64,000 bases of DNA, taken from an uncultured Ignavibacteria bacterium (lineage in GTDB: Bacteria > Zixibacteria > MSB-5A5 > JAABVY01 > JAHJOQ01). The position numbers and the translations under genes are program-made. Below, piece by piece: positions 46,185-58,636 of the stretch (within the stretch, counting starts at the first letter, position 1; every line of letters begins with the position of its first letter). The notes beneath the pieces are model-generated. The model did no database searches and had not been told where the DNA came from. It saw only the letters and a list, made by a program, of their open reading frames with translations. The stretch spans positions 40,141 to 104,140 of the forward strand of contig CAYQCE010000005.1 of the NCBI GenBank assembly GCA_964415885.1, read 5' to 3'.

Positions 46185-47201
46185 CTATTTCCGGAAGCAG
46201 CGCGGGTCTTTGCCGTACATTCCAAGATCGGCTGCGTAAGCTCGCGATCTGCAGCCCCAGCACTCGGTTAAAAGACTGCATCTCCGGCAACGCTCCGGTA
46301 GATTCGACTCGTCCTTGAAGCGCTTGAAGATCAGGTAATCCCTGTCTCTTGCGAATATCTCTCGAAGCGAGCCGTCACGGTGGATATTCCGGCGGTCGTC
46401 ACGAATCGTCGCGCACGGAGTTACCGAGCCATCGCACGTCACCGCCGCGGTTGCAGAGCAGTACTGCTTGTTCACACAGTTCATCGGGAATTCCTTCACG
46501 CCCCACTGACGGCTAAACCGCCGATAGACTCTGGCGACTTCACTCTCATCCGGAATGAACCGCGCGAGCTCTCCCGCATCCGATCCCGGACGAAGATATG
46601 TGTGATAGACATTAAGCGAAGTGCGAATCATGAACTCATCTTCGAAGAAATCGATAGTCCGGATCATATCCTCGGCAGTCTGAAGCCCGGTGTATGTAAC
46701 CGAATTCAGTATCTGCTCCGCGGGGTATCCCTCCGCAAGAAGTTTGCGGACGCCGTTGAGGATGATATCGAAATCGCTATCCGGCCTGTCAGGATGCAGA
46801 GTTTTGTACGCTCCTCTGTCTACGGTCGAAATGTGCACGGATATCAATCCGTTTCTGCAAAGTCTCGCCGTATCTGCCACGATTCCTTCATCAGAGAACG
46901 GAAGCCCACCGGTCCACATGTTGTTTCTGAGTCCGATAGATTCGGCATGCTCGAGATGCTCGAAGATCGATTCGCGTAACAGCGGTTCTCCGCCGAGCCA
47001 TTCGATTGCGGTGATACCCAATCTCGCTGAATCCTCGAGAATCTCAGCGATTAGCCCGTCGGAGAGAGTGTTGCGCTCCTCTGGAAGAGCGTTCATGTAG
47101 CAGTAGATACACCCCTGACGGCAAACATCTCCGACCTCGAGTTGAAGAGCGTAGATGCCGTCGCGATCGTATGCCTCGTTCAGCGCTTCGTAATCGATCA
47201 T
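46185..47201 (-). CDS. Radical SAM enzyme with C-terminal SPASM/twitch Cys-rich domain
   Basis: CxxxCxxC motif CRQGCIYC near the N-terminus; C-terminal cysteine cluster CSATAAVTCDGSVTPC...CRRCSLLTECWGCRSRAY...DPRC typical of SPASM-domain maturases; 338 aa. Confidence 0.85.
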   Translation of the reverse strand: MIDYEALNEAYDRDGIYALQLEVGDVCRQGCIYCYMNALPEERNTLSDGLIAEILEDSARLGITAIEWLGGEPLLRESIFEHLEHAESIGLRNNMWTGGLPFSDEGIVADTARLCRNGLISVHISTVDRGAYKTLHPDRPDSDFDIILNGVRKLLAEGYPAEQILNSVTYTGLQTAEDMIRTIDFFEDEFMIRTSLNVYHTYLRPGSDAGELARFIPDESEVARVYRRFSRQWGVKEFPMNCVNKQYCSATAAVTCDGSVTPCATIRDDRRNIHRDGSLREIFARDRDYLIFKRFKDESNLPERCRRCSLLTECWGCRSRAYAADLGMYGKDPRCFRK

Positions 47202-47314: not shown

Positions 47315-47725
47315 CTAATAGTTGCCGACCGACTCGCTTGATTCCTCGACCCATTCTGTGATGCTGGCCTGAACCTCGCTGATCATCTCTTCCGTTTCAG
47401 ACTTGAATTGCGCCCAATCCTCTCTGGTGGTACTTTCAATCTGATCCAGCCTGCTCTGAAGCTCGCTCTTTCTAGACTGAAGTTCGTCTATATGCCGCTG
47501 TACGGTCGTCGAGTCGACATCTTCGCTCTTGGCGAGACGATTCTGAAACTCGTCGATCTGTGATTGAACGTCATCTATGGCAGAGTTAATCTCGAGTGTT
47601 AGCCTGGTCTTGTCCTGACTCAGATTCATCTCTCCGGTCTCCTCGCCGCCTCCGCAAGAGATAATGAATAGACCTGCAGCAATTGTCAGCAGGATTGCCG
47701 GTAGTAGTCGCATGTAACGCGTCAT
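47315..47725 (-). CDS. Lipoprotein with coiled-coil region
   Basis: Signal peptide plus lipobox (LFIISC followed by GGG); Q/E/L-rich heptad-like repeats (QSQIDEFQNRL...ELQSRKSELQSRLDQIE). Confidence 0.6.
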   Translation of the reverse strand: MTRYMRLLPAILLTIAAGLFIISCGGGEETGEMNLSQDKTRLTLEINSAIDDVQSQIDEFQNRLAKSEDVDSTTVQRHIDELQSRKSELQSRLDQIESTTREDWAQFKSETEEMISEVQASITEWVEESSESVGNY

Positions 47726-48060
47726 GTCGATTCCTTTCGATTCCGGTTGAGTGATAACTCCAGTTTCAGTTATCGTTCAGCACGTTGTTTGCGCACTGCA
47801 GAGCTTCGATACTCATCTTTCATAGCTATCATCGCTATGTCTCCAACTCAAGAGTTGCAGGCAGACCCATGCTCGAAACCGAGCGGCGCAACACTACTGC
47901 GCATCATATAGTCTGTCATGTCGGGATGATAGAGAAGTTAAATATCATTAACAGTCTCGAAAGGTAATTGTTCCAAAGTGTCCCGGACTCAGGGGGCTTG
48001 TCGAGAAAGCTCGTACCACTGGAAAAGCTGTCATCGCGAGGAATCCCGCGGAGGCGGAAT

Positions 48061-48295
48061 GACGCGGCGATCTCATAGTCAGGCAATACTATACGGCTAC
48101 TTTGAGATTGCCACGCTCGCTACGCTCACTCGCAAAGACTAAGGTTTTGGGGTTTGTCAACAAGCCCTTGGGGACCGGGTCTGCAGTAACCGTTTTTGTA
48201 CCTTATGAGACAGTCTCCCCTCATCTGCCACAAGTTTTCAAGAAGGATCGCTTAATTTGGAGTCGGCAGACGAAAGCGTCTGCCGTTCGTCAAAA
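48061..48295. repeat. Mosaic interspersed repeat (modules M1 + M3), left flank of the BMC module
   Basis: M1 at 48104..48139 matches 14313..14348. M3 (CTCATCTGCCAC...GGCAGACGAAAGCGTCTGCCGTTC, 48222..48290) matches 51716..51790 in the same orientation. Contains the hairpin GGCAGACG-AAAG-CGTCTGCC. Confidence 0.65.
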
Positions 48296-48346
48296 GGTCT
48301 GATTGATCGTTGAAGCGTGTGTCGCAGCTCAATCGAAAGAAGTGGA

Positions 48347-48910
48347 TTAGAGAATCTCTCTGACTATCTCCGGCGTCGGACGCGGAATCACAACCTTGTT
48401 GACCAGAAGCCCCTGCCTGCCGATCACATCCGCGCCGGCATCCACGGCAGCACGTACGGCTGAGACCTCGCCGGTCATCGTGACGAATGCCTTGCCGCCA
48501 AGTGCCATCGCGAGCCTGATTTCGAGAAGCTCGACATCGGCGGCTTTCACCGCTGCGTCAGCGCCCTCGATCAGCGATGCGACCGAGAAGGATTCGAGGA
48601 TCCCCATAGCGTCAAGATTAGAGACAACGTTTGTGGCGGTCAGCGCTGGAAATATCGAGTGGTGAATGTTAGGAATGATGAAAGTATCGATCACGGCTTC
48701 TCTTGCTATCTCCTCACCGTCCTGGACGGACGAGGTGACCGCCGAGACATCCCCGGTGACCATCACGATGTATTTCCCGGAACAGATTGTCCGGTTCATT
48801 ACGAGTTCGACCGCGGAGGCCTTCAACATGGCATCCGCCGCCTCTATGCCCTTTGCGATTGATGAAAACTCAATCAGCCCAATTGATTCGCGGATAATAT
48901 CAGCCATCAA
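48347..48910 (-). CDS. BMC-T shell protein (tandem BMC domains), PduT-like with conserved Fe-S cysteine
   Basis: Two BMC domains (IGLIEFSSIAKGIEAADAMLKAS... and MGILESFSVASLIEGADAAVKAADV...VIPRPTPEI). TICSGKY aligns with the PduT TICPGKF cysteine that ligates the 4Fe-4S cluster. 187 aa. Confidence 0.85.
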   Translation of the reverse strand: MMADIIRESIGLIEFSSIAKGIEAADAMLKASAVELVMNRTICSGKYIVMVTGDVSAVTSSVQDGEEIAREAVIDTFIIPNIHHSIFPALTATNVVSNLDAMGILESFSVASLIEGADAAVKAADVELLEIRLAMALGGKAFVTMTGEVSAVRAAVDAGADVIGRQGLLVNKVVIPRPTPEIVREIL

Positions 48911-50226
48911 TTCACCTCTATGGTCACGGAATGATCGATATTTGAAACGCGCCCACTCATTGAAGCGTGTACCGGCGCGCCCAGCTCGCCGTCCGGGACA
49001 TCGCCGATCATGTCGCCCTCGGAGACATGCGCCCCGACGTCAACGAGCGGTTTGCATTCTGCACCGATATGCTGCTGCAGCGGAATGACTACCTTCTCGA
49101 TATCGAGTTCAGGCTCCGTGAACGGTGCCGGATTAGCATATGGGTTAAGCCCGAGTTTGGTCTGGAGTTTCTTGGTAGGCACCCGACGGTATTCCTTCAT
49201 CGGATGCTCCTTAACCGGCTCTGTCTGCTCCCACTTGAATCCCTTTGCCTTGAGCGCGCGTTTGGAGTAGACGCAGGCATCTCTCGGCTCGAGATCTTCC
49301 GGACACGCATACAGGCTGCAGATGTTGCACTCGCAGCAAAGAGTGGCGTGCGTCGACCAGTAATCGCGCTTCTCGCCCTCGAACTGAAGCGATCGCATAA
49401 CTTTGTGTGGCTCTATCTTGTAGCCGAGCAGGTACCTCGGACAATACTCAGTGCAGTAGGTGCACTGATCGCATGCGGACTTCCCGATTCGATCAGACTG
49501 ACGTTTCGGCATCGATTTGCGGTACACCAGCTTGTTAGATTTCGGCAAAATGATATACCCGCCCGATAGTTTCGTCACCGGACTCGCCAAGTCGGTCACT
49601 ACCTTCCCCATCATCGCGCCGCCATCGAGTGCCGCCGGCTCATCGTCATAGAAGCTCAAACCTCCGGCAGCGTCGATGAGGGTCTGAAGCGTGACACCAA
49701 TCGGGATCTCGACTGTCATCGGATTCTTGACTGCGCCCGCTATTGTGAGATATTTCCGCGTGACCGGCTTACCCTCGGATGCGTTGTTGATGTTGCGCAG
49801 CGTCTCGACATTGCTGACCACGCACCCGACCTGCAGCGGCAGTCCCTCCGGCGGAATGAGTCGTCCCGTGATCGAATGAACGACCTCGTATTCATCGCCG
49901 GCCGGATAGAAATCACCGAAGAGAAACATCTTGATGTCATGCTTTGGGCAGAGTCTCCGGAACTCGCCTACCGCACGTTTGTGCTTCTCCTTCAATGCTA
50001 TATATCTCTTGTCCGCACCCACATACTCACCGGCAAGATTAGTACCGCGAAGGATATCCTCGGCTTCGCGTTTCATTATCTCGTTGTCTTTGGCGAGAAG
50101 CGGTTCGCACTCCGCGCCATTGGCAAGATAGTATTCGACGCGCGAGTTCAGCTTAACATGTGTGGGAAAACCGGCGCCGCCAGCACCGACAACACCTGCG
50201 GACCTGACCTGCTCCTTAAGATCCAT
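48907..50226 (-). CDS. PduS-like RnfC-family flavo-iron-sulfur oxidoreductase
   Basis: N-terminal glycine-rich NADH/FMN-site motif AGVVGAGGAGFPTHVKL; two ferredoxin-type CxxCxxCxxxCP clusters (CDQCTYCTEYCP; CCECNICSLYACP); 439 aa. ATGA-coupled to the BMC-T gene. Confidence 0.85.
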   Translation of the reverse strand: MDLKEQVRSAGVVGAGGAGFPTHVKLNSRVEYYLANGAECEPLLAKDNEIMKREAEDILRGTNLAGEYVGADKRYIALKEKHKRAVGEFRRLCPKHDIKMFLFGDFYPAGDEYEVVHSITGRLIPPEGLPLQVGCVVSNVETLRNINNASEGKPVTRKYLTIAGAVKNPMTVEIPIGVTLQTLIDAAGGLSFYDDEPAALDGGAMMGKVVTDLASPVTKLSGGYIILPKSNKLVYRKSMPKRQSDRIGKSACDQCTYCTEYCPRYLLGYKIEPHKVMRSLQFEGEKRDYWSTHATLCCECNICSLYACPEDLEPRDACVYSKRALKAKGFKWEQTEPVKEHPMKEYRRVPTKKLQTKLGLNPYANPAPFTEPELDIEKVVIPLQQHIGAECKPLVDVGAHVSEGDMIGDVPDGELGAPVHASMSGRVSNIDHSVTIEVN

Positions 50227-50269
50227 TTAGGATGTCACTCCTTCTCAATCACCGGATTCTCTGAATCGG

Positions 50270-50650
50270 TCATTTGTCCGATTCGGAGCCCCCGCCGTAC
50301 TTCCAGCTACCACCCTCAATACCCTTGGGCGGATCGCCTCTCCACCTTATGTACGCAAGATGAGAGTCGGAATGCACCTCATTGCTGTCGAGCTCAATCT
50401 CGTCAATGATGCCGACTACCGCCGCCTCGATGGAGGTATCCTCGTTGCCGACCGCGAGCCGTGCAGCGCGGCCGTAAGCCACCAGCACCATCTCGCCGAT
50501 TCCGGCGCCGAGAATGTCTGCGGCAACGACGATGTTCTTCGTGGGCTCCTCGTCGAGGTCGTATGGATGTATGATGAGAAACCTGAGCGATTCTATACTG
50601 GCAGTTTTCTTGGTGGACCAGAGAGTACCAACGACTTTTCCAACAAACAT
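50270..50650 (-). CDS. BMC-P vertex (pentamer) protein, EutN/PduN/CcmL family
   Basis: MFVGKVVGTLWSTKKTASIESLRFLIIHPYD... matches the BMC-P N-terminal consensus (M.vG.V.Gt.wsT.K). Roughly 35-aa C-terminal extension. Confidence 0.85.
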   Translation of the reverse strand: MFVGKVVGTLWSTKKTASIESLRFLIIHPYDLDEEPTKNIVVAADILGAGIGEMVLVAYGRAARLAVGNEDTSIEAAVVGIIDEIELDSNEVHSDSHLAYIRWRGDPPKGIEGGSWKYGGGSESDK

Positions 50651-50654
50651 AAAA

Positions 50655-51209
50655 CTACTTCCCCAACGCTTCCTTGATATTCTCGATAAGCTGAGTCTTG
50701 GAGGCGTGTGATATTTCCCGCCCCTTCATATCGAGTTTGGGCAGTTTGCGCGCGAATTGACGGAGATCTGCGACAGTCATTGCATCGAGTTTCTCATCCG
50801 TTATATCGAAATACCGTTCGGGATCGATCTCCGGCTCTTCCGTCCCGCCGCCATCTGAGGTTCTCTCACCTCGCCACTTCGCAGGGTTGGAACCGATCCC
50901 GCCGGGCGGTGTGGGGCGATATTTGGAAATGAAAGTGCCGGGTGGCAGAATGCTGCCGAGTAGTTCATCCGGTCGCGGGATAACATGCACCGCAATTAGT
51001 TCGCCAACCCTCTGCGCTGCTGCAGCACCCGCCTCCGCCGCTGCCTGAACGGCTGCAAGTTCACCTTCGAATTTGATTGTCACGAGGGTCCCGTCGGTTA
51101 CTTCTGCGGATGAGATATCGACTGCCGCAGCTTTCGCGGCGGCATCGCATGCCTCGATTGCGGCCACAAGGCCCGCTGTCTCGATCAATCCTAACGCATC
51201 CCTGTCCAT
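50655..51209 (-). CDS. BMC-H hexamer shell protein (PduA/CcmK-like) with roughly 100-aa C-terminal extension
   Basis: Canonical BMC domain ALGLIETAGLVAAIEACDAAAKAAAVDI...VGELIAVHVIPRPDELLGSILP. Start placed at the internal ATG (MDRDALGLIETAG) with upstream GAGGTG; a TTG at 51254 is an alternative. The C-terminal tail carries a Rho_N/SAP-like motif. Confidence 0.85.
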   Translation of the reverse strand: MDRDALGLIETAGLVAAIEACDAAAKAAAVDISSAEVTDGTLVTIKFEGELAAVQAAAEAGAAAAQRVGELIAVHVIPRPDELLGSILPPGTFISKYRPTPPGGIGSNPAKWRGERTSDGGGTEEPEIDPERYFDITDEKLDAMTVADLRQFARKLPKLDMKGREISHASKTQLIENIKEALGK

Positions 51210-51519
51210 CAACACCTCAATACTTGAGGGTAGCAATATAACATCATTCGCCAAACGAGCGCAACTTGTTTGATTGATATGGATAGCTCGTTCGATTTAT
51301 AGCTGACTTGAGTAGTTAAAACCTGACGGTTTTCTTCCTGATGTCTGACACAAATGGGTCTCGCTTTTGACGACCGGAATTGGATTTGGCAACTAAGTGC
51401 ATTAGAATGTCGGTGCACGAGACGTACACCAACCACGGGAAACTCTACGTCGCGTTCGCTCTTCTGTGGCATCGCGCGTTCGATACTAATGGATCGATCA
51501 CTATCTAAGTTGTGTGCAT

Positions 51520-51790
51520 GGCAGATGCCCTCATCTGCCACGTAAGACACGATAATAGGTTGCGGCAGATCTTGATCCCGCCATGCGCGGGATTGTGATC
51601 TGCCGATCGTTCGGTTACGATTTACATGAACCTGCGACTTACGAGCGGTCAGTTCACACTCGCCTGTGGCGAGCAGGAACTGACCGAACCAAGTCAAGCA
51701 CTTGTGAGACAGCCTCTCCTCATCTGCCACGGAGTTGAGAAGGGATCGTGTGATTCGACATCGGCAGACGAAGGCGTCTGCCGTTCATCC
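51520..51790. repeat. Mosaic interspersed repeat (partial M3 + M2 + M3), right flank of the BMC module
   Basis: 51563..51720 matches 25350..25500 (M2 hairpin core CGGTCAGTTCACACTCGCCTGTGGCGAGCAGGAACTGACCGAACC). 51716..51790 matches 48222..48290 (M3). An extra CCTCATCTGCCAC copy lies at 51524. Confidence 0.65.
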
Positions 51791-51917
51791 GATACCGTGT
51801 TTCTGCGCTCGCTTTTCTCGCTCCGCAACCCGGCCTACGCGTTCCACAGTCCTCATCGCGCCTCCGGCGCGAGTCAGGAGCGCAGGGATCCTGACCTGCG
51901 GGAAACACCCCGCGTGA

Positions 51918-52790
51918 TTACAATCCAACCTTCTTCCGGCAGATAACAACACGCTCGATACCGCTGTAGTCTTTTACCGTACGGATGAATTCGAGGTCAT
52001 TGTCTGTGTCGATCAGGGCGCGTATGCTGTCCGTCTGTCCGAGGCCGATCTCGAAGATCAGATGACCACCCGGAACCAGATAGGGCGGCGCCTCTTTTAA
52101 CATCCTCCGGACGAAATCGAGACCATCCGGACCTGAGGTAAGTGCGTCCGTCGGTTCGAATTTGCGAATCTGCGGTGCGAGCTCGTCGAAATCCGATTCT
52201 GCTATGTATGGCGGGTTGCAGACTATCGCATCGTACGGATGCTTGTCGTTCTCAATTGCGGTGAACATATCGCCGTTGAACAGCCCGAATCGAGACTGCA
52301 ACCCGTGAAGCGCGACATTCTCACCCGCAAGCGCGAGTGCTTCCGCCGAGCTATCGGCTGCACTGATCGAGGCTTGCGGAAGGTTGATTGCGAGCGCGAT
52401 TCCGATGCATCCGGTGCCGCACGCCAGATCGAGAATGTAGAGCCGGTCGAAGTCCTGAAGCATCTCAATCGCCTCCGACACCACGAATTCGGTCTCCGGC
52501 CGGGGGATCAGCGCTCGGGGATCGCACTTGATGCGGATACCGTAGAATTCTGTCTCGCCAAGTATGTACTGAAGGGGTTCATCATTGAGTCGTCGAGTCA
52601 GAAATACGTCAAATTCAGCGACTATATCAGATGTTACCAGACGATTCGGTTCGGTGTACAGCTCCACGCGCGATAGGTTGGTCAGACTGCACGCGATCCT
52701 TTCGGCGTTGATCCGGGGGGCATCGACGCCCTTCTCGGCCAGCTTGCGAGTAGCTTCGTTGATCAGGTCGAGGAGTTTCTCTTCCGGCAT
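51918..52790 (-). CDS. prmC: Release factor glutamine N5-methyltransferase PrmC (HemK)
   Basis: Class I SAM MTase motif LDLACGTGCIGIA and the NPPY catalytic tetrapeptide (IVCNPPYI); 290 aa. Confidence 0.9.
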   Translation of the reverse strand: MPEEKLLDLINEATRKLAEKGVDAPRINAERIACSLTNLSRVELYTEPNRLVTSDIVAEFDVFLTRRLNDEPLQYILGETEFYGIRIKCDPRALIPRPETEFVVSEAIEMLQDFDRLYILDLACGTGCIGIALAINLPQASISAADSSAEALALAGENVALHGLQSRFGLFNGDMFTAIENDKHPYDAIVCNPPYIAESDFDELAPQIRKFEPTDALTSGPDGLDFVRRMLKEAPPYLVPGGHLIFEIGLGQTDSIRALIDTDNDLEFIRTVKDYSGIERVVICRKKVGL

Positions 52791-56637: not shown

Positions 56638-58038
56638 CTATTTATCGACCACCGCCGCTGTCATGGATGCCTCTGTGACGAGGTTGCCATCGACGAATGC
56701 TCTCCCTTCCATCTTGCACGTATTGCGTCGGAACGCCACGAACTCCAGCTCGAAGCGAATCTGATCCCCCGGTATGACAGGCTTGCGAAACTTGACCTTG
56801 TCGATTCCCATGAAATAGACAAGCTTGTCAGCCGGTTCGTCGATTGCATTGAGCAGAAGGAACCCGCCCGCCTGAGCCATCGCCTCGACAATCAGCACAC
56901 CCGGCATAATCGGGTGGCCCGGGAAATGTCCCTGAAAAAACGGCTCGTTTATCGTGACATTCTTCAGAGCCACGACTTTCTTTTTGGGTTCGATATCAAT
57001 AATTCGATCTATGAGAAGGAATGGATACCGATGCGGCATAACGTCAAGTATCGAGCTGATATCGAGGAGCGCTCCTTCTTCAGTTGACATCCCTCCGCCG
57101 TACTTCTCCGAAATGAGCTGCTTTTCATATATCTTGCGCATTTTGCGAGCGACCGCAACATTTGCGGCATGCCCGGAGCGAGCCGCAAGAAAATGCGCCT
57201 TCACCGGAGCGCCGATCAGGGTCATGTCTCCCAGCAAATCGACAGCTTTGTGTCGCACAGGCTCGTTGTAGAAACGGAGTTCCTTGTCCTCGAGAATGCC
57301 GGTCGTGCCGAGATTGACATCCCGGTCAACACCGAGCATTTCCCGCAGCCGTCCCATTTCGTCTTCTCCGAACTCCTTGTCGACTATGACTATCGCCGTG
57401 TCGAGTCCTCCGCCCTTGATGATACCCTGCGAGCGCATCATCTCGACCTCCGAGAGAAAGCAGAATGTCCGGGCGGGCGCGAATTCATCCACGAACTCAT
57501 CTCGCAGCGAAACGAGAGATGTATACTGCGTGCCGAGAGCCTTGTTGGCATAGTCGACCAGAAATGTTATCCGGAATTCATCGGACGGAGTCACCACGAT
57601 ATCGACCTTGCGCTCAGGCTCTGAATAAGCGAACGGTTTGTCGAGAATCAGAAAACGCCGTTCTGCGTCCTGATCTACGAGCCCCGCCTCTAGGAGTTTC
57701 TCCACGAATGGAGTAATGGAGCCATCGAACACCGGTGGTTCGAGGTTGTCGAGCTCGCAGATTATATTGTCGATTTCGAGGCCGGCGATTGCCGCAAGGA
57801 CGTGCTCGACCGTATAGACCTTATTCCCATTTACTGCAAGGGTTGTGCCACGATTAAGGTCCGTAACGTGATCCACGATGGCGGGAATCTCCGGGCATCC
57901 GTCGATATCACAGCGAAGAAACGTGATCCCGTGATCGACTTCCGCCGGCCGGAAAGTGAGCTTCGATTTGCATCCCGTATGAAGACCGATGCCTTCGAGA
58001 GAGACGGGATGCGCGATTGTCCTTTGCTTATCGTTCAT
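56638..58038 (-). CDS. lpxC/fabZ: Bifunctional UDP-3-O-acyl-GlcNAc deacetylase / 3-hydroxyacyl-ACP dehydratase (LpxC-FabZ fusion)
   Basis: N-terminal LpxC (TIAHPVSLEGIGLHTGCKSKLTFRPA...HVLAA). C-terminal FabZ hot-dog fold (LLIDRIIDIEPKKKVVALKNVTINEPFFQGHFPGHPIMPGVLIVEAMAQ). Confidence 0.9.
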   Translation of the reverse strand: MNDKQRTIAHPVSLEGIGLHTGCKSKLTFRPAEVDHGITFLRCDIDGCPEIPAIVDHVTDLNRGTTLAVNGNKVYTVEHVLAAIAGLEIDNIICELDNLEPPVFDGSITPFVEKLLEAGLVDQDAERRFLILDKPFAYSEPERKVDIVVTPSDEFRITFLVDYANKALGTQYTSLVSLRDEFVDEFAPARTFCFLSEVEMMRSQGIIKGGGLDTAIVIVDKEFGEDEMGRLREMLGVDRDVNLGTTGILEDKELRFYNEPVRHKAVDLLGDMTLIGAPVKAHFLAARSGHAANVAVARKMRKIYEKQLISEKYGGGMSTEEGALLDISSILDVMPHRYPFLLIDRIIDIEPKKKVVALKNVTINEPFFQGHFPGHPIMPGVLIVEAMAQAGGFLLLNAIDEPADKLVYFMGIDKVKFRKPVIPGDQIRFELEFVAFRRNTCKMEGRAFVDGNLVTEASMTAAVVDK

Positions 58039-58167
58039 TACAGGACTCGATTATAATACTGCCCCGAAGGATTGTAAACTACTTTTTCTGCTCTCATAAG
58101 CCGTGCGGATCTCCATTTGCGCAAGATTGTTGACATTTGCTGCAGAATCGATATTATCACTGCATCG

Positions 58168-58222
58168 ATCGGCGATGGAGTTCGCCGCCAACCGCCGTCA
58201 AGGCTGATGACTCCTGTGAAAA
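58168..58222 (+). promoter_or_regulatory. Fluoride riboswitch (crcB RNA motif)
   Basis: GGCGATGGAGTTCGCC-GCCAACCGCC-GTCAAG-GCTGATGACTCCTGTG matches the fluoride-riboswitch consensus (GGCGAUGgnGuuCGCC...AACCGCC...GCUGAUGAunCCU). Located about 35 nt upstream of the crcB start. Confidence 0.85.
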
Positions 58223-58255
58223 TGCAACCGTGAACTTTCTGCCCGGAGTTGTTGT

Positions 58256-58636
58256 ATGTCAAAGATACTCGTAATCGGTCTTGGTGGCCTCATCGGGGCT
58301 ATCTCTCGTTACTACCTGAGTGAATATGTCCACAAAGTCCTCGGAGCTTCATTTCCCTATGGCACCTTGTCCGTGAATGTGCTCGGCTGCATGCTGGCCG
58401 GTTGCGTAATGTTTGCGGTAGAGGAGAAGCAAATATTCTCGCCCGAGATGGGATTGTTTATCTCGGTTGGGATACTTGGAGCGTTTACCACTTTTTCAAC
58501 CTTCGGATACGAAACTGTAGCTCTTCTGAGACAGAACCACTTTATTCCGGCTATGAGCACCGCTGCCGCAAATGTCATATTCGGTTTGGCGGCAGTATGG
58601 CTCGGTAGATCGGCCCTGCGGTTGCTCGTAGGGTGA
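58256..58636 (+). CDS. crcB: Fluoride ion channel CrcB/FluC
   Basis: 126 aa, 4 TM helices; GGxIGAxxRY motif (GGLIGAISRY) and the TTFSTF motif. Confidence 0.95.
   Translation: MSKILVIGLGGLIGAISRYYLSEYVHKVLGASFPYGTLSVNVLGCMLAGCVMFAVEEKQIFSPEMGLFISVGILGAFTTFSTFGYETVALLRQNHFIPAMSTAAANVIFGLAAVWLGRSALRLLVG

Follow-up and report, generated by a model that had tools for sequence, protein, structure and literature searches.

The 64,000-nucleotide stretch analysed here (hereafter the window; contig CAYQCE010000005.1, from an uncultured bacterium placed in the Zixibacteria) carries on its minus strand, between positions 48347 and 51209, four tightly packed open reading frames (ORFs) whose Pfam matches are those of bacterial microcompartment (BMC) proteins: a hexamer-forming shell protein (BMC-H), a pentamer-forming shell protein (BMC-P), a flavo-iron-sulphur protein of the PduS family and a tandem-BMC shell protein of the PduT family (BMC-T). 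The genes follow each other in the order H-P-S-T (S and T standing for the PduS- and PduT-family genes), with 4 nt between H and P, 43 nt between P and S, and a 1-nt overlap of S and T, the BMC-T start lying over the stop of the PduS-family gene. The BMC-H ORF can be extended to 50655-51254 (199 aa) if the TTG at 51254 is taken as an alternative start, the ATG at 51209 being the one used in relatives (equivalent 'MDREALGL'); likewise, the BMC-T ORF spans 48347-48910, and relatives begin at an ATG equivalent to 48907. An initial annotation, made from the letters of the window, had placed all three shell classes and a PduS-like protein at these positions, and had named missing PF00936 and PF03319 matches as an observation that would speak against it. 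This did not occur: Pfam scores were far above chance, with 78.6 bits for PF00936 in BMC-H (cut-off 24.5) and 92.3 bits for PF03319 in BMC-P, where the match covered profile positions 1-83 of 83. Coordinates are collected in Table 1, in which the PduS- and PduT-family proteins bear the names MNdh and BMC-T^SE, given to PduS and PduT outside Pdu systems by the Kerfeld laboratory (PNAS 2024, PMC11626177).

Table 1. Coordinates of the module, of other features of the window, and of three pairs of genes in related loci (last three lines, positions within the locus named; EP-ACT, ACT-domain protein with encapsulation-peptide-like helices).
Feature	Position	Strand	Evidence or remark
BMC-H hexamer protein, 184 aa	50655-51209	-	PF00936 E=3e-22
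BMC domain of BMC-H	50970-51197	-	Pfam match aa 20-95 of the 199-aa ORF
Low-complexity Pro/Gly-rich linker of BMC-H	50823-50909	-	AlphaFold2 (AF2) pLDDT <50, residues 100-129
C-terminal helix-extension-helix (HeH) domain of BMC-H, Rho_N/SAP-like, '...LDAMTVADLRQFARKLPKLDMKGREISHASKTQLIENIKEALGK'	50658-50822	-	Pfam counts
BMC-P pentamer protein, 126 aa	50270-50650	-	PF03319 E=3e-26
MNdh (PduS family), 439 aa	48907-50226	-	Complex1_51K E=3e-40, SLBB, Fer4_17, C-terminal RnfC_N
BMC-T^SE (PduT family), 186 aa	48347-48907	-	two PF00936 domains, E=8e-50
Pore cysteine codon, predicted inter-subunit [4Fe-4S] ligand, motif C-S-G-K	48782-48784	-	aligned with PduT pore Cys
Radical SAM/SPASM gene	46185-47201		co-oriented with the module, in 2.2-kb insertion
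sll1863-family lipoprotein gene	47315-47725		co-oriented with the module, in 2.2-kb insertion
Direct repeat copy A, ~90 nt	48202-48291	-	55 nt downstream of the BMC-T stop
Direct repeat copy B	51701-51789	-	between prmC stop and BMC-H start
EP-ACT and DUF711 pair, L001	12094-12660 and 14467-15822
EP-ACT and DUF711 pair, L018	12057-14244
EP-ACT and DUF711 pair, L086	11932-12420(-) and 13661-15022

The PduS-family protein showed, from N- to C-terminus, PF01512 (Complex1_51K, residues 7-147), PF10531 (SLBB, 160-207), a 4Fe-4S dicluster domain (251-312) and PF13375 (RnfC_N, 377-435), an order that is circularly permuted relative to RnfC, with RnfC_N at the C-terminus. An alignment of 19 homologues left invariant the motifs GAGGAGFP and NGAECEP, which we take to be the FMN/NADH-site motifs of the NuoF/RnfC family, and two groups of cysteines, C252/255/258/262 and C297/300/303/308; these eight residues presumably correspond to two [4Fe-4S] clusters, from what is generally known of NuoF and RnfC. 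MNdh thus has in common with both proteins an FMN/NADH-binding Complex1_51K domain, SLBB and a domain for two [4Fe-4S] clusters, but it differs from RnfC by the place of the RnfC_N barrel-sandwich domain, by having a shell protein as partner, and by the lack of RnfD/RnfG/RnfE/RnfA/RnfB membrane partners near its gene in the window. Its score against the NCBIfam rnfC profile TIGR01945, 242 bits, was just under the cut-off of 246, and its best matches came from Zixibacteria, Latescibacteria, KSB1 and Ignavibacteriales. An encapsulation peptide on MNdh itself was considered and rejected: the Pfam domains fill residues 7-435 of 439, and there is therefore no room for a terminal one.

The tandem-BMC protein contains two PF00936 stretches (167 bits) in a chain of about 185 aa, and it aligned end to end with solved PduT-type structures, namely 3NWG (7e-53) and PduT 3PAC and 3N79. 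Because it scored 138.6 bits against TIGR02526 (PduT), below the equivalog cut-off of 250, we regard it as a family relative rather than as a Pdu or Eut orthologue. The cysteine of its motif 'RTICSGK' falls on the PduT pore cysteine, found there in 'TICPGKF', as the initial annotation had proposed. All 91 distinct T proteins whose genes adjoin PduS have this residue (85 with CSGK, 4 with CAGK and 2 with CPGK), and two T proteins not adjoining PduS lack it.

This pair of genes corresponds to a module described recently (PMC11626177). In that work, NADH drove the reduction of the Fe-S clusters in a purified complex of MNdh with BMC-T^SE, and in the modelled complex three clusters lay 7-9 A apart, in line with FMN. 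The two genes were adjacent in 97% of 2,172 loci and frequently found on satellite loci (18 of 20 for the PVM type, 5 of 7 for ACI); in the same survey, MNdh was confined to BMC types containing an aldehyde dehydrogenase, and the circular permutation that puts RnfC_N at the end of MNdh is also described there. As in the published module, the MNdh gene of the window comes first and the tandem-BMC gene directly after, with the same four MNdh domains, two ferredoxin-type Cys motifs and a pore Cys in BMC-T, and the published pair is, like that of the window, often encoded apart from cargo genes. The window differs in that the pair is joined in one operon with BMC-H and BMC-P, that no aldehyde dehydrogenase is found in it, and that the activity of its clade is predicted by homology. 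By analogy, the pair of the window is very likely an electron conduit, as had been suggested from the sequence, and the module shown experimentally in 2024 matches it; since MNdh/BMC-T^SE is published and experimentally supported, the idea is not new.

To place the four genes among their relatives, we scanned one genome per species with a PduS profile and mapped BMC, EutN and PduS domains on the 80 loci obtained; further sources were clustering of the neighbour ORFs, Pfam, and a metagenome scan with an alignment of BMC-P (all loci are numbered with an L in what follows). In about 80 of 83 loci, a tandem-BMC gene came directly after the PduS gene, and usually no other shell gene lay within 10 kb. 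Hosts of such lone S-T pairs included Ignavibacteria, Melioribacter, Verrucomicrobia, Acidobacteria, Bacteroidota, KSB1 and Latescibacteria. A P-P-P-S-T order was found in Acidobacteria, and in Opitutaceae (L038, L080) the S-T pair stood beside a large PVM-like locus. An exception to the adjacency of PduS and PduT was observed in L110 (3178-4834) and L111 (10001-11657), where a BMC-P gene (product 63% identical to that of the window) is directly followed by a PduS homologue, while the DNA available around them, at most 10 kb upstream and 8.6 kb downstream, showed no BMC-T or BMC-H.

The arrangement of the window, with a C-terminally extended BMC-H (H(ext)-P-S-T), recurred in Zixibacteria (L001, L007, L008), Ignavibacteriales (L004, L006) and Calditrichaeota (L018); in all, these three groups and the metagenomes yielded 14 distinct H-P-S-T loci in addition to that of the window. 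Their flanks were counted only where enough sequence was available, i.e. at least 1.5 kb downstream for an ACT-domain protein, at least 5 kb downstream for DUF711 and at least 3 kb upstream for an activator. An ACT protein lay 3' of H-P-S-T in 10 of 11 informative loci, DUF711 (UPF0210) lay 3' in 9 of 10, and a TPR-sigma54 activator lay 5' in 9 of 12. A seven-gene locus is thus recurrent, made of the TPR-sigma54 activator (~750 aa), H(ext), P, S, T, the ACT protein (160-230 aa) and DUF711 (~451 aa).

The ACT proteins open with two amphipathic helices, e.g. LSDFEIGKITEIVAGRVGAKL and DAKTLRQVVDRVVDAMK; a linker rich in Pro then leads to an ACT_6 domain at the C-terminus. For these N-terminal helices, the helical hydrophobic moment reached a maximum of 0.7-0.8, versus about 0.5 for shuffled sequences, and the second helix resembles the PduD targeting peptide. 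Encapsulation peptides are by accepted criteria recognised as extensions that only the BMC-linked homologues have and that a linker of low conservation connects to the rest of the protein. Heliorestis, a Firmicute, has as partner of DUF711 an ACT protein of only 96 aa, without the N-terminal extension. As far as the sequences tell, the N-terminal helices of the ACT proteins are encapsulation-peptide-like, and we refer to these proteins as EP-ACT. They were found beside DUF711 also in L100, L102, L104, L115, L167, L094, L118 and L124, so that the two accompany shell genes across several architectures and phyla: H-AldDH-P-ACT-DUF711-H in L094 and L097 (AldDH, aldehyde dehydrogenase), whose BMC-P are 67-72% identical to that of the window; H-AldDH-H-P-P-T-ACT-DUF711 in L124; and P-ACT-DUF711 in L118 and L168. 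An aldehyde dehydrogenase is therefore present in three of these related loci (L094, L097 and L124).

DUF711, named 'PFL family protein' at NCBI, shows 67-70% identity when its sequences from these phyla are compared with those from Firmicutes. By structure, it belongs to the ten-stranded barrel group of ribonucleotide reductase (RNR) and pyruvate formate-lyase (PFL) (PMC4390871). In Heliorestis convoluta (L171:2908-5368), a PduL-type phosphotransacylase (PF06130, 164 aa) is encoded just 5' of the 96-aa ACT protein and DUF711, in a 9.4-kb locus where no shell genes were found; such a neighbour is a hint at a possible role of DUF711 in the metabolism of acyl-CoA or acyl-phosphate. A separate observation concerns the aldehyde dehydrogenase of L094 (7948-9897, 649 aa), which ends in a motif similar to the 'ITAEDVRR...IVTPQA' that opens the ACT protein of L124 (5313-5822). 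The common motif may represent a small BMC-associated domain shared by the two.

These loci bear on one alternative, in which the four genes are an accessory, satellite-type module serving a conventional main BMC (SPU-, PVM- or ACI-like) encoded elsewhere in the genome, with its own set of BMC-H and BMC-P, its aldehyde dehydrogenase and its signature enzyme; in certain redox conditions, the module would contribute an alternative means of NAD+ recycling as well as additional shell proteins. Such a role would agree with the mostly satellite position of MNdh/BMC-T^SE in the PVM and ACI types and with its restriction to aldehyde-dehydrogenase types (PMC11626177), as well as with the finding that the S-T pair usually stands alone, and beside PVM-like loci not only in L038 and L080 but in the metagenomic L142, L146 and L153; Melioribacter, moreover, has a MIC4 main locus together with a FRAG1 PduT. 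However, in the 2021 catalogue of BMC types a cluster having both BMC-H and BMC-P is by definition a 'main' and not a 'satellite' locus (Sutter et al. 2021, PMC8217296). As the cluster of the window contains both, the suggestion of a satellite locus made in the initial annotation does not fit this definition. Furthermore, no conventional main-locus genes were found within 10 kb of the loci with the H(ext)-P-S-T order, where EP-ACT and DUF711 recur instead, and the clade of the window's BMC-P meets an aldehyde dehydrogenase only in the H-ALD-P-ACT-DUF711-H loci L094 and L097. We consider an accessory role unlikely.

Turning to the shell proteins themselves, BMC-H matched BMC-H entries of the PDB (PduA, EutM, HO-5815) at 1e-20 to 1e-23, its BMC domain was modelled with a pLDDT above 90 (AF2), and an alignment to the HO BMC-H showed that the edge lysine ('DAAAKAA') and the motif 'IPRPD' are kept; in an alignment of 60 BMC-H sequences, K25 was invariant. 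BMC-P consists of a EutN/CcmL domain (aa 1-83) and a lineage-specific Gly-rich tail common only to the closest relatives (L084). The particularity of BMC-H is its C-terminal extension, in which a linker, of about 30 to 110 aa across homologues, leads to a helix-extension-helix (HeH) domain of about 50 residues. This domain was modelled with a pLDDT of 83-90 within the full-length AF2 model and of 87 when modelled alone. A PF07498 Rho_N match was found in the tail of 42 of the 60 homologues (best E=2e-5) and a SAP match in 24; the invariant pattern of the tail across the 60 sequences is L..MTV.ELRQ.AR.L....LKGREIS.A.K.QLI, with V, L, R, R, G, R, I, S, A and L as invariant HeH residues. Foldseek gave no significant match with the HeH model (all E>1), the best geometry being that of Rho N-terminal domains (TMq 0.61-0.64, rmsd ~2 A), and for this reason the Rho_N/SAP-like label is applied on sequence grounds only.

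In established shell structures, the BMC-H termini sit on the outward concave face, and by analogy the HeH domain should therefore point to the cytosol, where it may bind nucleic acid outside the shell. Two known systems may be compared. EutK has, like the BMC-H of the window, a single BMC domain to which a linker attaches a small helical domain, of a type that elsewhere binds nucleic acids; its tail, however, is a helix-turn-helix, whereas that of the window is a Rho_N/SAP-like HeH of putative binding, and the NCBIfam EutK match to BMC-H spans the BMC domain only. In the microcompartments of Hodarchaeales, shell proteins carry DNA-capturing extensions, and the locus also holds MNdh and a CPGK BMC-T (bioRxiv 2025 preprint, PMC12747264). 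This system is a precedent for an outward nucleic-acid-binding appendage on a shell, although the appendage is there a Lys/Arg-rich disordered region on a pentamer, versus a folded HeH domain of putative binding on a hexamer protein in the window.

In the window itself, the genes that usually accompany H-P-S-T are missing, and a comparison with the nearest loci indicates how this came about. L086, whose PduS is 78% identical, has the order prfA-x-tldD-pmbA-prmC-H-P-S-T-ACT(inverted)-flagellin-like-DUF711. In L084 (PduS 85% identical), a PAS-sigma54 activator lies upstream, the T gene abuts a 295-aa gene and prfA, and DUF711 is located at a separate locus of this lineage, where its neighbours (flagellin-like, GNAT, HDOD) are those that it has in L086. 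In L172 (BMC-H 93% identical), H-P-S-T is followed by a lipoprotein-gene remnant of 28 codons and a radical SAM gene. Compared to L084, the window has 2.2 kb inserted to separate T from the gene of 295 aa; this insertion carries a radical SAM/SPASM gene and a lipoprotein gene, a pair that does not recur beside modules of other lineages, and the 620-nt gap after BMC-T belongs to it. A search of this gap for a degraded ACT gene was negative (tblastn, E up to 50), and it contains no ORF of 70 aa or more; no homologue of the TPR-sigma54 activator was found in the window. Since ACT, DUF711 and TPR-sigma54 homologues are all missing from the window, the module has been cut from its usual neighbours by rearrangement in the window's sub-lineage. 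The radical SAM/SPASM gene, co-oriented with the module and present also in L172, was considered as a partner and rejected, being confined to the two closest lineages, absent from L084 and every other module locus, and without a terminal extension.

Two further elements were noted near the module. The copies of the direct repeat bracket the four genes with a spacing of 3499 nt; they are about 85% identical and contain the hairpin CGGCAGACG-n4-CGTCTGCCG, a pattern found twice in the window versus 0 expected, and a partial third copy lies at 51528-51541. Duplication of a terminator is one possible origin of this repeat, a scar of recombination left by movement of the cassette another. In addition, a sequence of about 34 nt located 5' of BMC-H (51407-51440) recurs at unrelated intergenic sites of L084 (15108-15141) and L089 (7372-7442, as an inverted pair), and is probably a small dispersed repeat of the window's lineage. 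No riboswitch or other Rfam family was detected in 47600-52000, even at E<=1.

Having lost its neighbours, the module could be a decaying remnant, left unused after the rearrangement removed regulator and cargo genes. Relative to most loci of its kind, the window has indeed lost the neighbouring sigma54 activator, ACT and DUF711; the intergenic gaps on either side are unusually long (620 and ~700 nt), and the upstream region gave no recognisable promoter of sigma54 or sigma70 type: a sigma54 site (TGGCAC-N5-TTGC) was found upstream of BMC-H neither in the window nor in 16 related loci, and scans for sigma70 promoters and terminators near the module gave chance levels only. On the other hand, dN/dS values relative to L084, which has the same derived arrangement, were 0.14 for H, 0.06 for P and 0.05 for S (for T, dN was 0.044 and dS saturated). 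All four genes are under strong purifying selection. The four intact reading frames and the low dN/dS contradict decay; the tight, coupled spacing is also kept, and at least three lineages that have diverged from each other (window, L084, L172) still share the arrangement. That the module is a relic is very improbable.

Such selection on genes devoid of an adjoining cargo gene, in the window and in its two closest lineages (L084; L172-L174), would rather favour a second possibility, close to the 'cargo-less' and 'self-contained' electron-conduit compartment of the initial annotation: the shell would enclose MNdh alone, or MNdh would act outside, with no pathway inside. Consistent with the latter, half of the published AlphaFold docking solutions put MNdh on the outer face of the shell (PMC11626177). 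The annotation was right that no signature or cargo enzyme lies nearby, and this holds across the whole window: Pfam scans that took in nearly every long ORF of the 64 kb revealed no aldehyde dehydrogenase, phosphotransacylase (PduL/Pta), aldolase or glycyl-radical enzyme. 'Cargo-less', however, describes the local gene order only, as relatives add EP-ACT (10/11) and DUF711 (9/10), and L086, so close to the window, still has both beside its module. NADH, it has been argued, does not readily cross shell pores, and an oxidiser in the lumen without a lumenal producer of NADH would have no substrate; nor was MNdh ever found, in the published survey, in BMC types lacking an aldehyde dehydrogenase (both PMC11626177). 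Given that NADH oxidation in the lumen requires a source of NADH there, and that relatives have a neighbour with encapsulation-peptide-like helices, a compartment limited to redox transfer seems to us quite improbable, if somewhat less so than decay.

The other long ORFs of the window are housekeeping or unrelated genes by Pfam and Rfam, among them RNase R, MreB, LptF/G, PrpD, PrfA, PrmC, TldD/PmbA, LpxA, CrcB, PurL and an aromatic amino-acid lyase. Directly 5' of crcB (58256-58636) lies a fluoride riboswitch (58162-58223; RF01734, 58.6 bits), and an LpxC-FabZ fusion (PF03331 and PF07977) was found at 56638-58038. This fusion is a trait associated with FCB-group bacteria and agrees with a Zixibacteria-like origin of the window. 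The MreB of the window falls in a cluster at 90% identity made up of Zixibacteria MAGs; together with the best PduS matches, this makes the source probably a Zixibacteria-like member of the FCB group.

The catalogue of 2021 offers the nearest published counterpart of the whole cluster (all that follows on it from PMC8217296). Its 'fragmented' (FRAG) types have shell genes in up to six places, in loci with neither identifiable enzymes nor encapsulation-peptide matches; FRAG1 was recorded there as shell-only, with a PduS/T pair and with a BMC-H extended at its C-terminus, and FRAG4 includes an ACT protein whose N-terminal part is specific to BMCs. Shell proteins of Zixibacteria and Caldithrix appear in its trees as 'fragmented (sat) (omitted)', the zixibacterial ones being left untyped, and DUF711/PF05167 is absent from its list of BMC-associated families. 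The window resembles FRAG1 in the absence of recognisable enzymes beside the shell genes, in the PduS/T pair and in the extended BMC-H, and FRAG types in general by hosts from the FCB group and candidate phyla; the FRAG4 ACT protein, for its part, resembles the EP-ACT of the window's relatives. Unlike in FRAG types, H, P, S and T of the window are in one operon rather than scattered, and the window has one BMC-P where FRAG types have a green/grey/orange triplet. Shell-only FRAG loci with PduS/T and an extended BMC-H having been known since 2021, the idea of the window's module is in this respect not new either.

Taken together, these observations lead us to favour, with a probability of about 65%, the view that the four genes are no complete system but the conserved shell and cofactor-recycling core of a dispersed metabolosome of the Zixibacteria/FCB type, whose cargo is encoded elsewhere. 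The shell would be built from BMC-H hexamers, BMC-P pentamers and BMC-T^SE trimers, with the HeH domain of BMC-H facing the cytosol. MNdh, which has no targeting peptide, would dock on the lumenal face of BMC-T^SE and oxidise NADH trapped in the lumen; electrons would pass from FMN to the two [4Fe-4S] clusters of MNdh, then to a [4Fe-4S] cluster held by three pore Cys of the trimer, and on to a cytosolic acceptor, and NAD+ would thereby be regenerated for a NAD+-dependent lumenal enzyme. What the sequences show is which genes are present, how their domains are ordered, their cofactor motifs and conservation, their synteny and the purifying selection on them. We infer the path of the electrons from homologues characterised in C. 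botulinum; the orientation of the HeH domain and the presence of distant cargo are deduced as well, and by analogy with relatives this cargo would consist of EP-ACT and DUF711, with or without an aldehyde dehydrogenase. Such cargo is expected elsewhere in the genome because rearrangements split the core from its usual neighbour genes.

Several points weigh against a dispersed metabolosome. Within the 64 kb of the window there is no further microcompartment gene, no ACT or DUF711 gene and no aldehyde dehydrogenase. The L084/L089 lineage does have DUF711 elsewhere, but EP-ACT is found beside neither locus, and this recruiting adaptor may have been lost there. Regarding the proteins, MNdh activity and Fe-S binding are deduced from homologues of about 40-50% identity or less, and the pore motif is CSGK, not the published CP(G/S)K, CSGK being nevertheless the norm of the clade. 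Finally, as regards the capacity of the extended BMC-H to tile facets by itself, its pore loop 'EVTDGT' is non-canonical, the canonical form being a small-residue loop such as GSG, and the interface Arg is replaced in many BMC-H homologues (IPNP, not IPRP).

A more far-reaching proposal, suggested by the sequences of the related loci, is that H(HeH)-P-MNdh-T^SE is the signature of a hitherto undescribed metabolosome type of Zixibacteria, Calditrichaeota, Ignavibacteriales and allies, in which DUF711, a widespread and highly conserved protein, would be the cargo, EP-ACT its recruiter, the TPR-sigma54 activator the control, and the outward HeH domain a nucleic-acid tether. We put it forward tentatively, and with doubt, the window itself being without the ACT and DUF711 genes. 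If it were true, the window would be a rearranged copy of that system, FRAG-like shells would gain a candidate enzyme, and DUF711 would receive its first cellular context.

The cluster is of known kinds, a MNdh/BMC-T^SE module and a FRAG-like shell locus, and not a new class. With the dispersed metabolosome as the favoured explanation, the window provides a further MNdh/BMC-T^SE module joined to shell genes, in a group left untyped by the 2021 catalogue. Fragmented shell-only loci have been puzzling because no cargo is known for them; here it is the related loci, more than the window itself, that give a lead, namely EP-ACT and DUF711 as the candidate cargo of this shell family.

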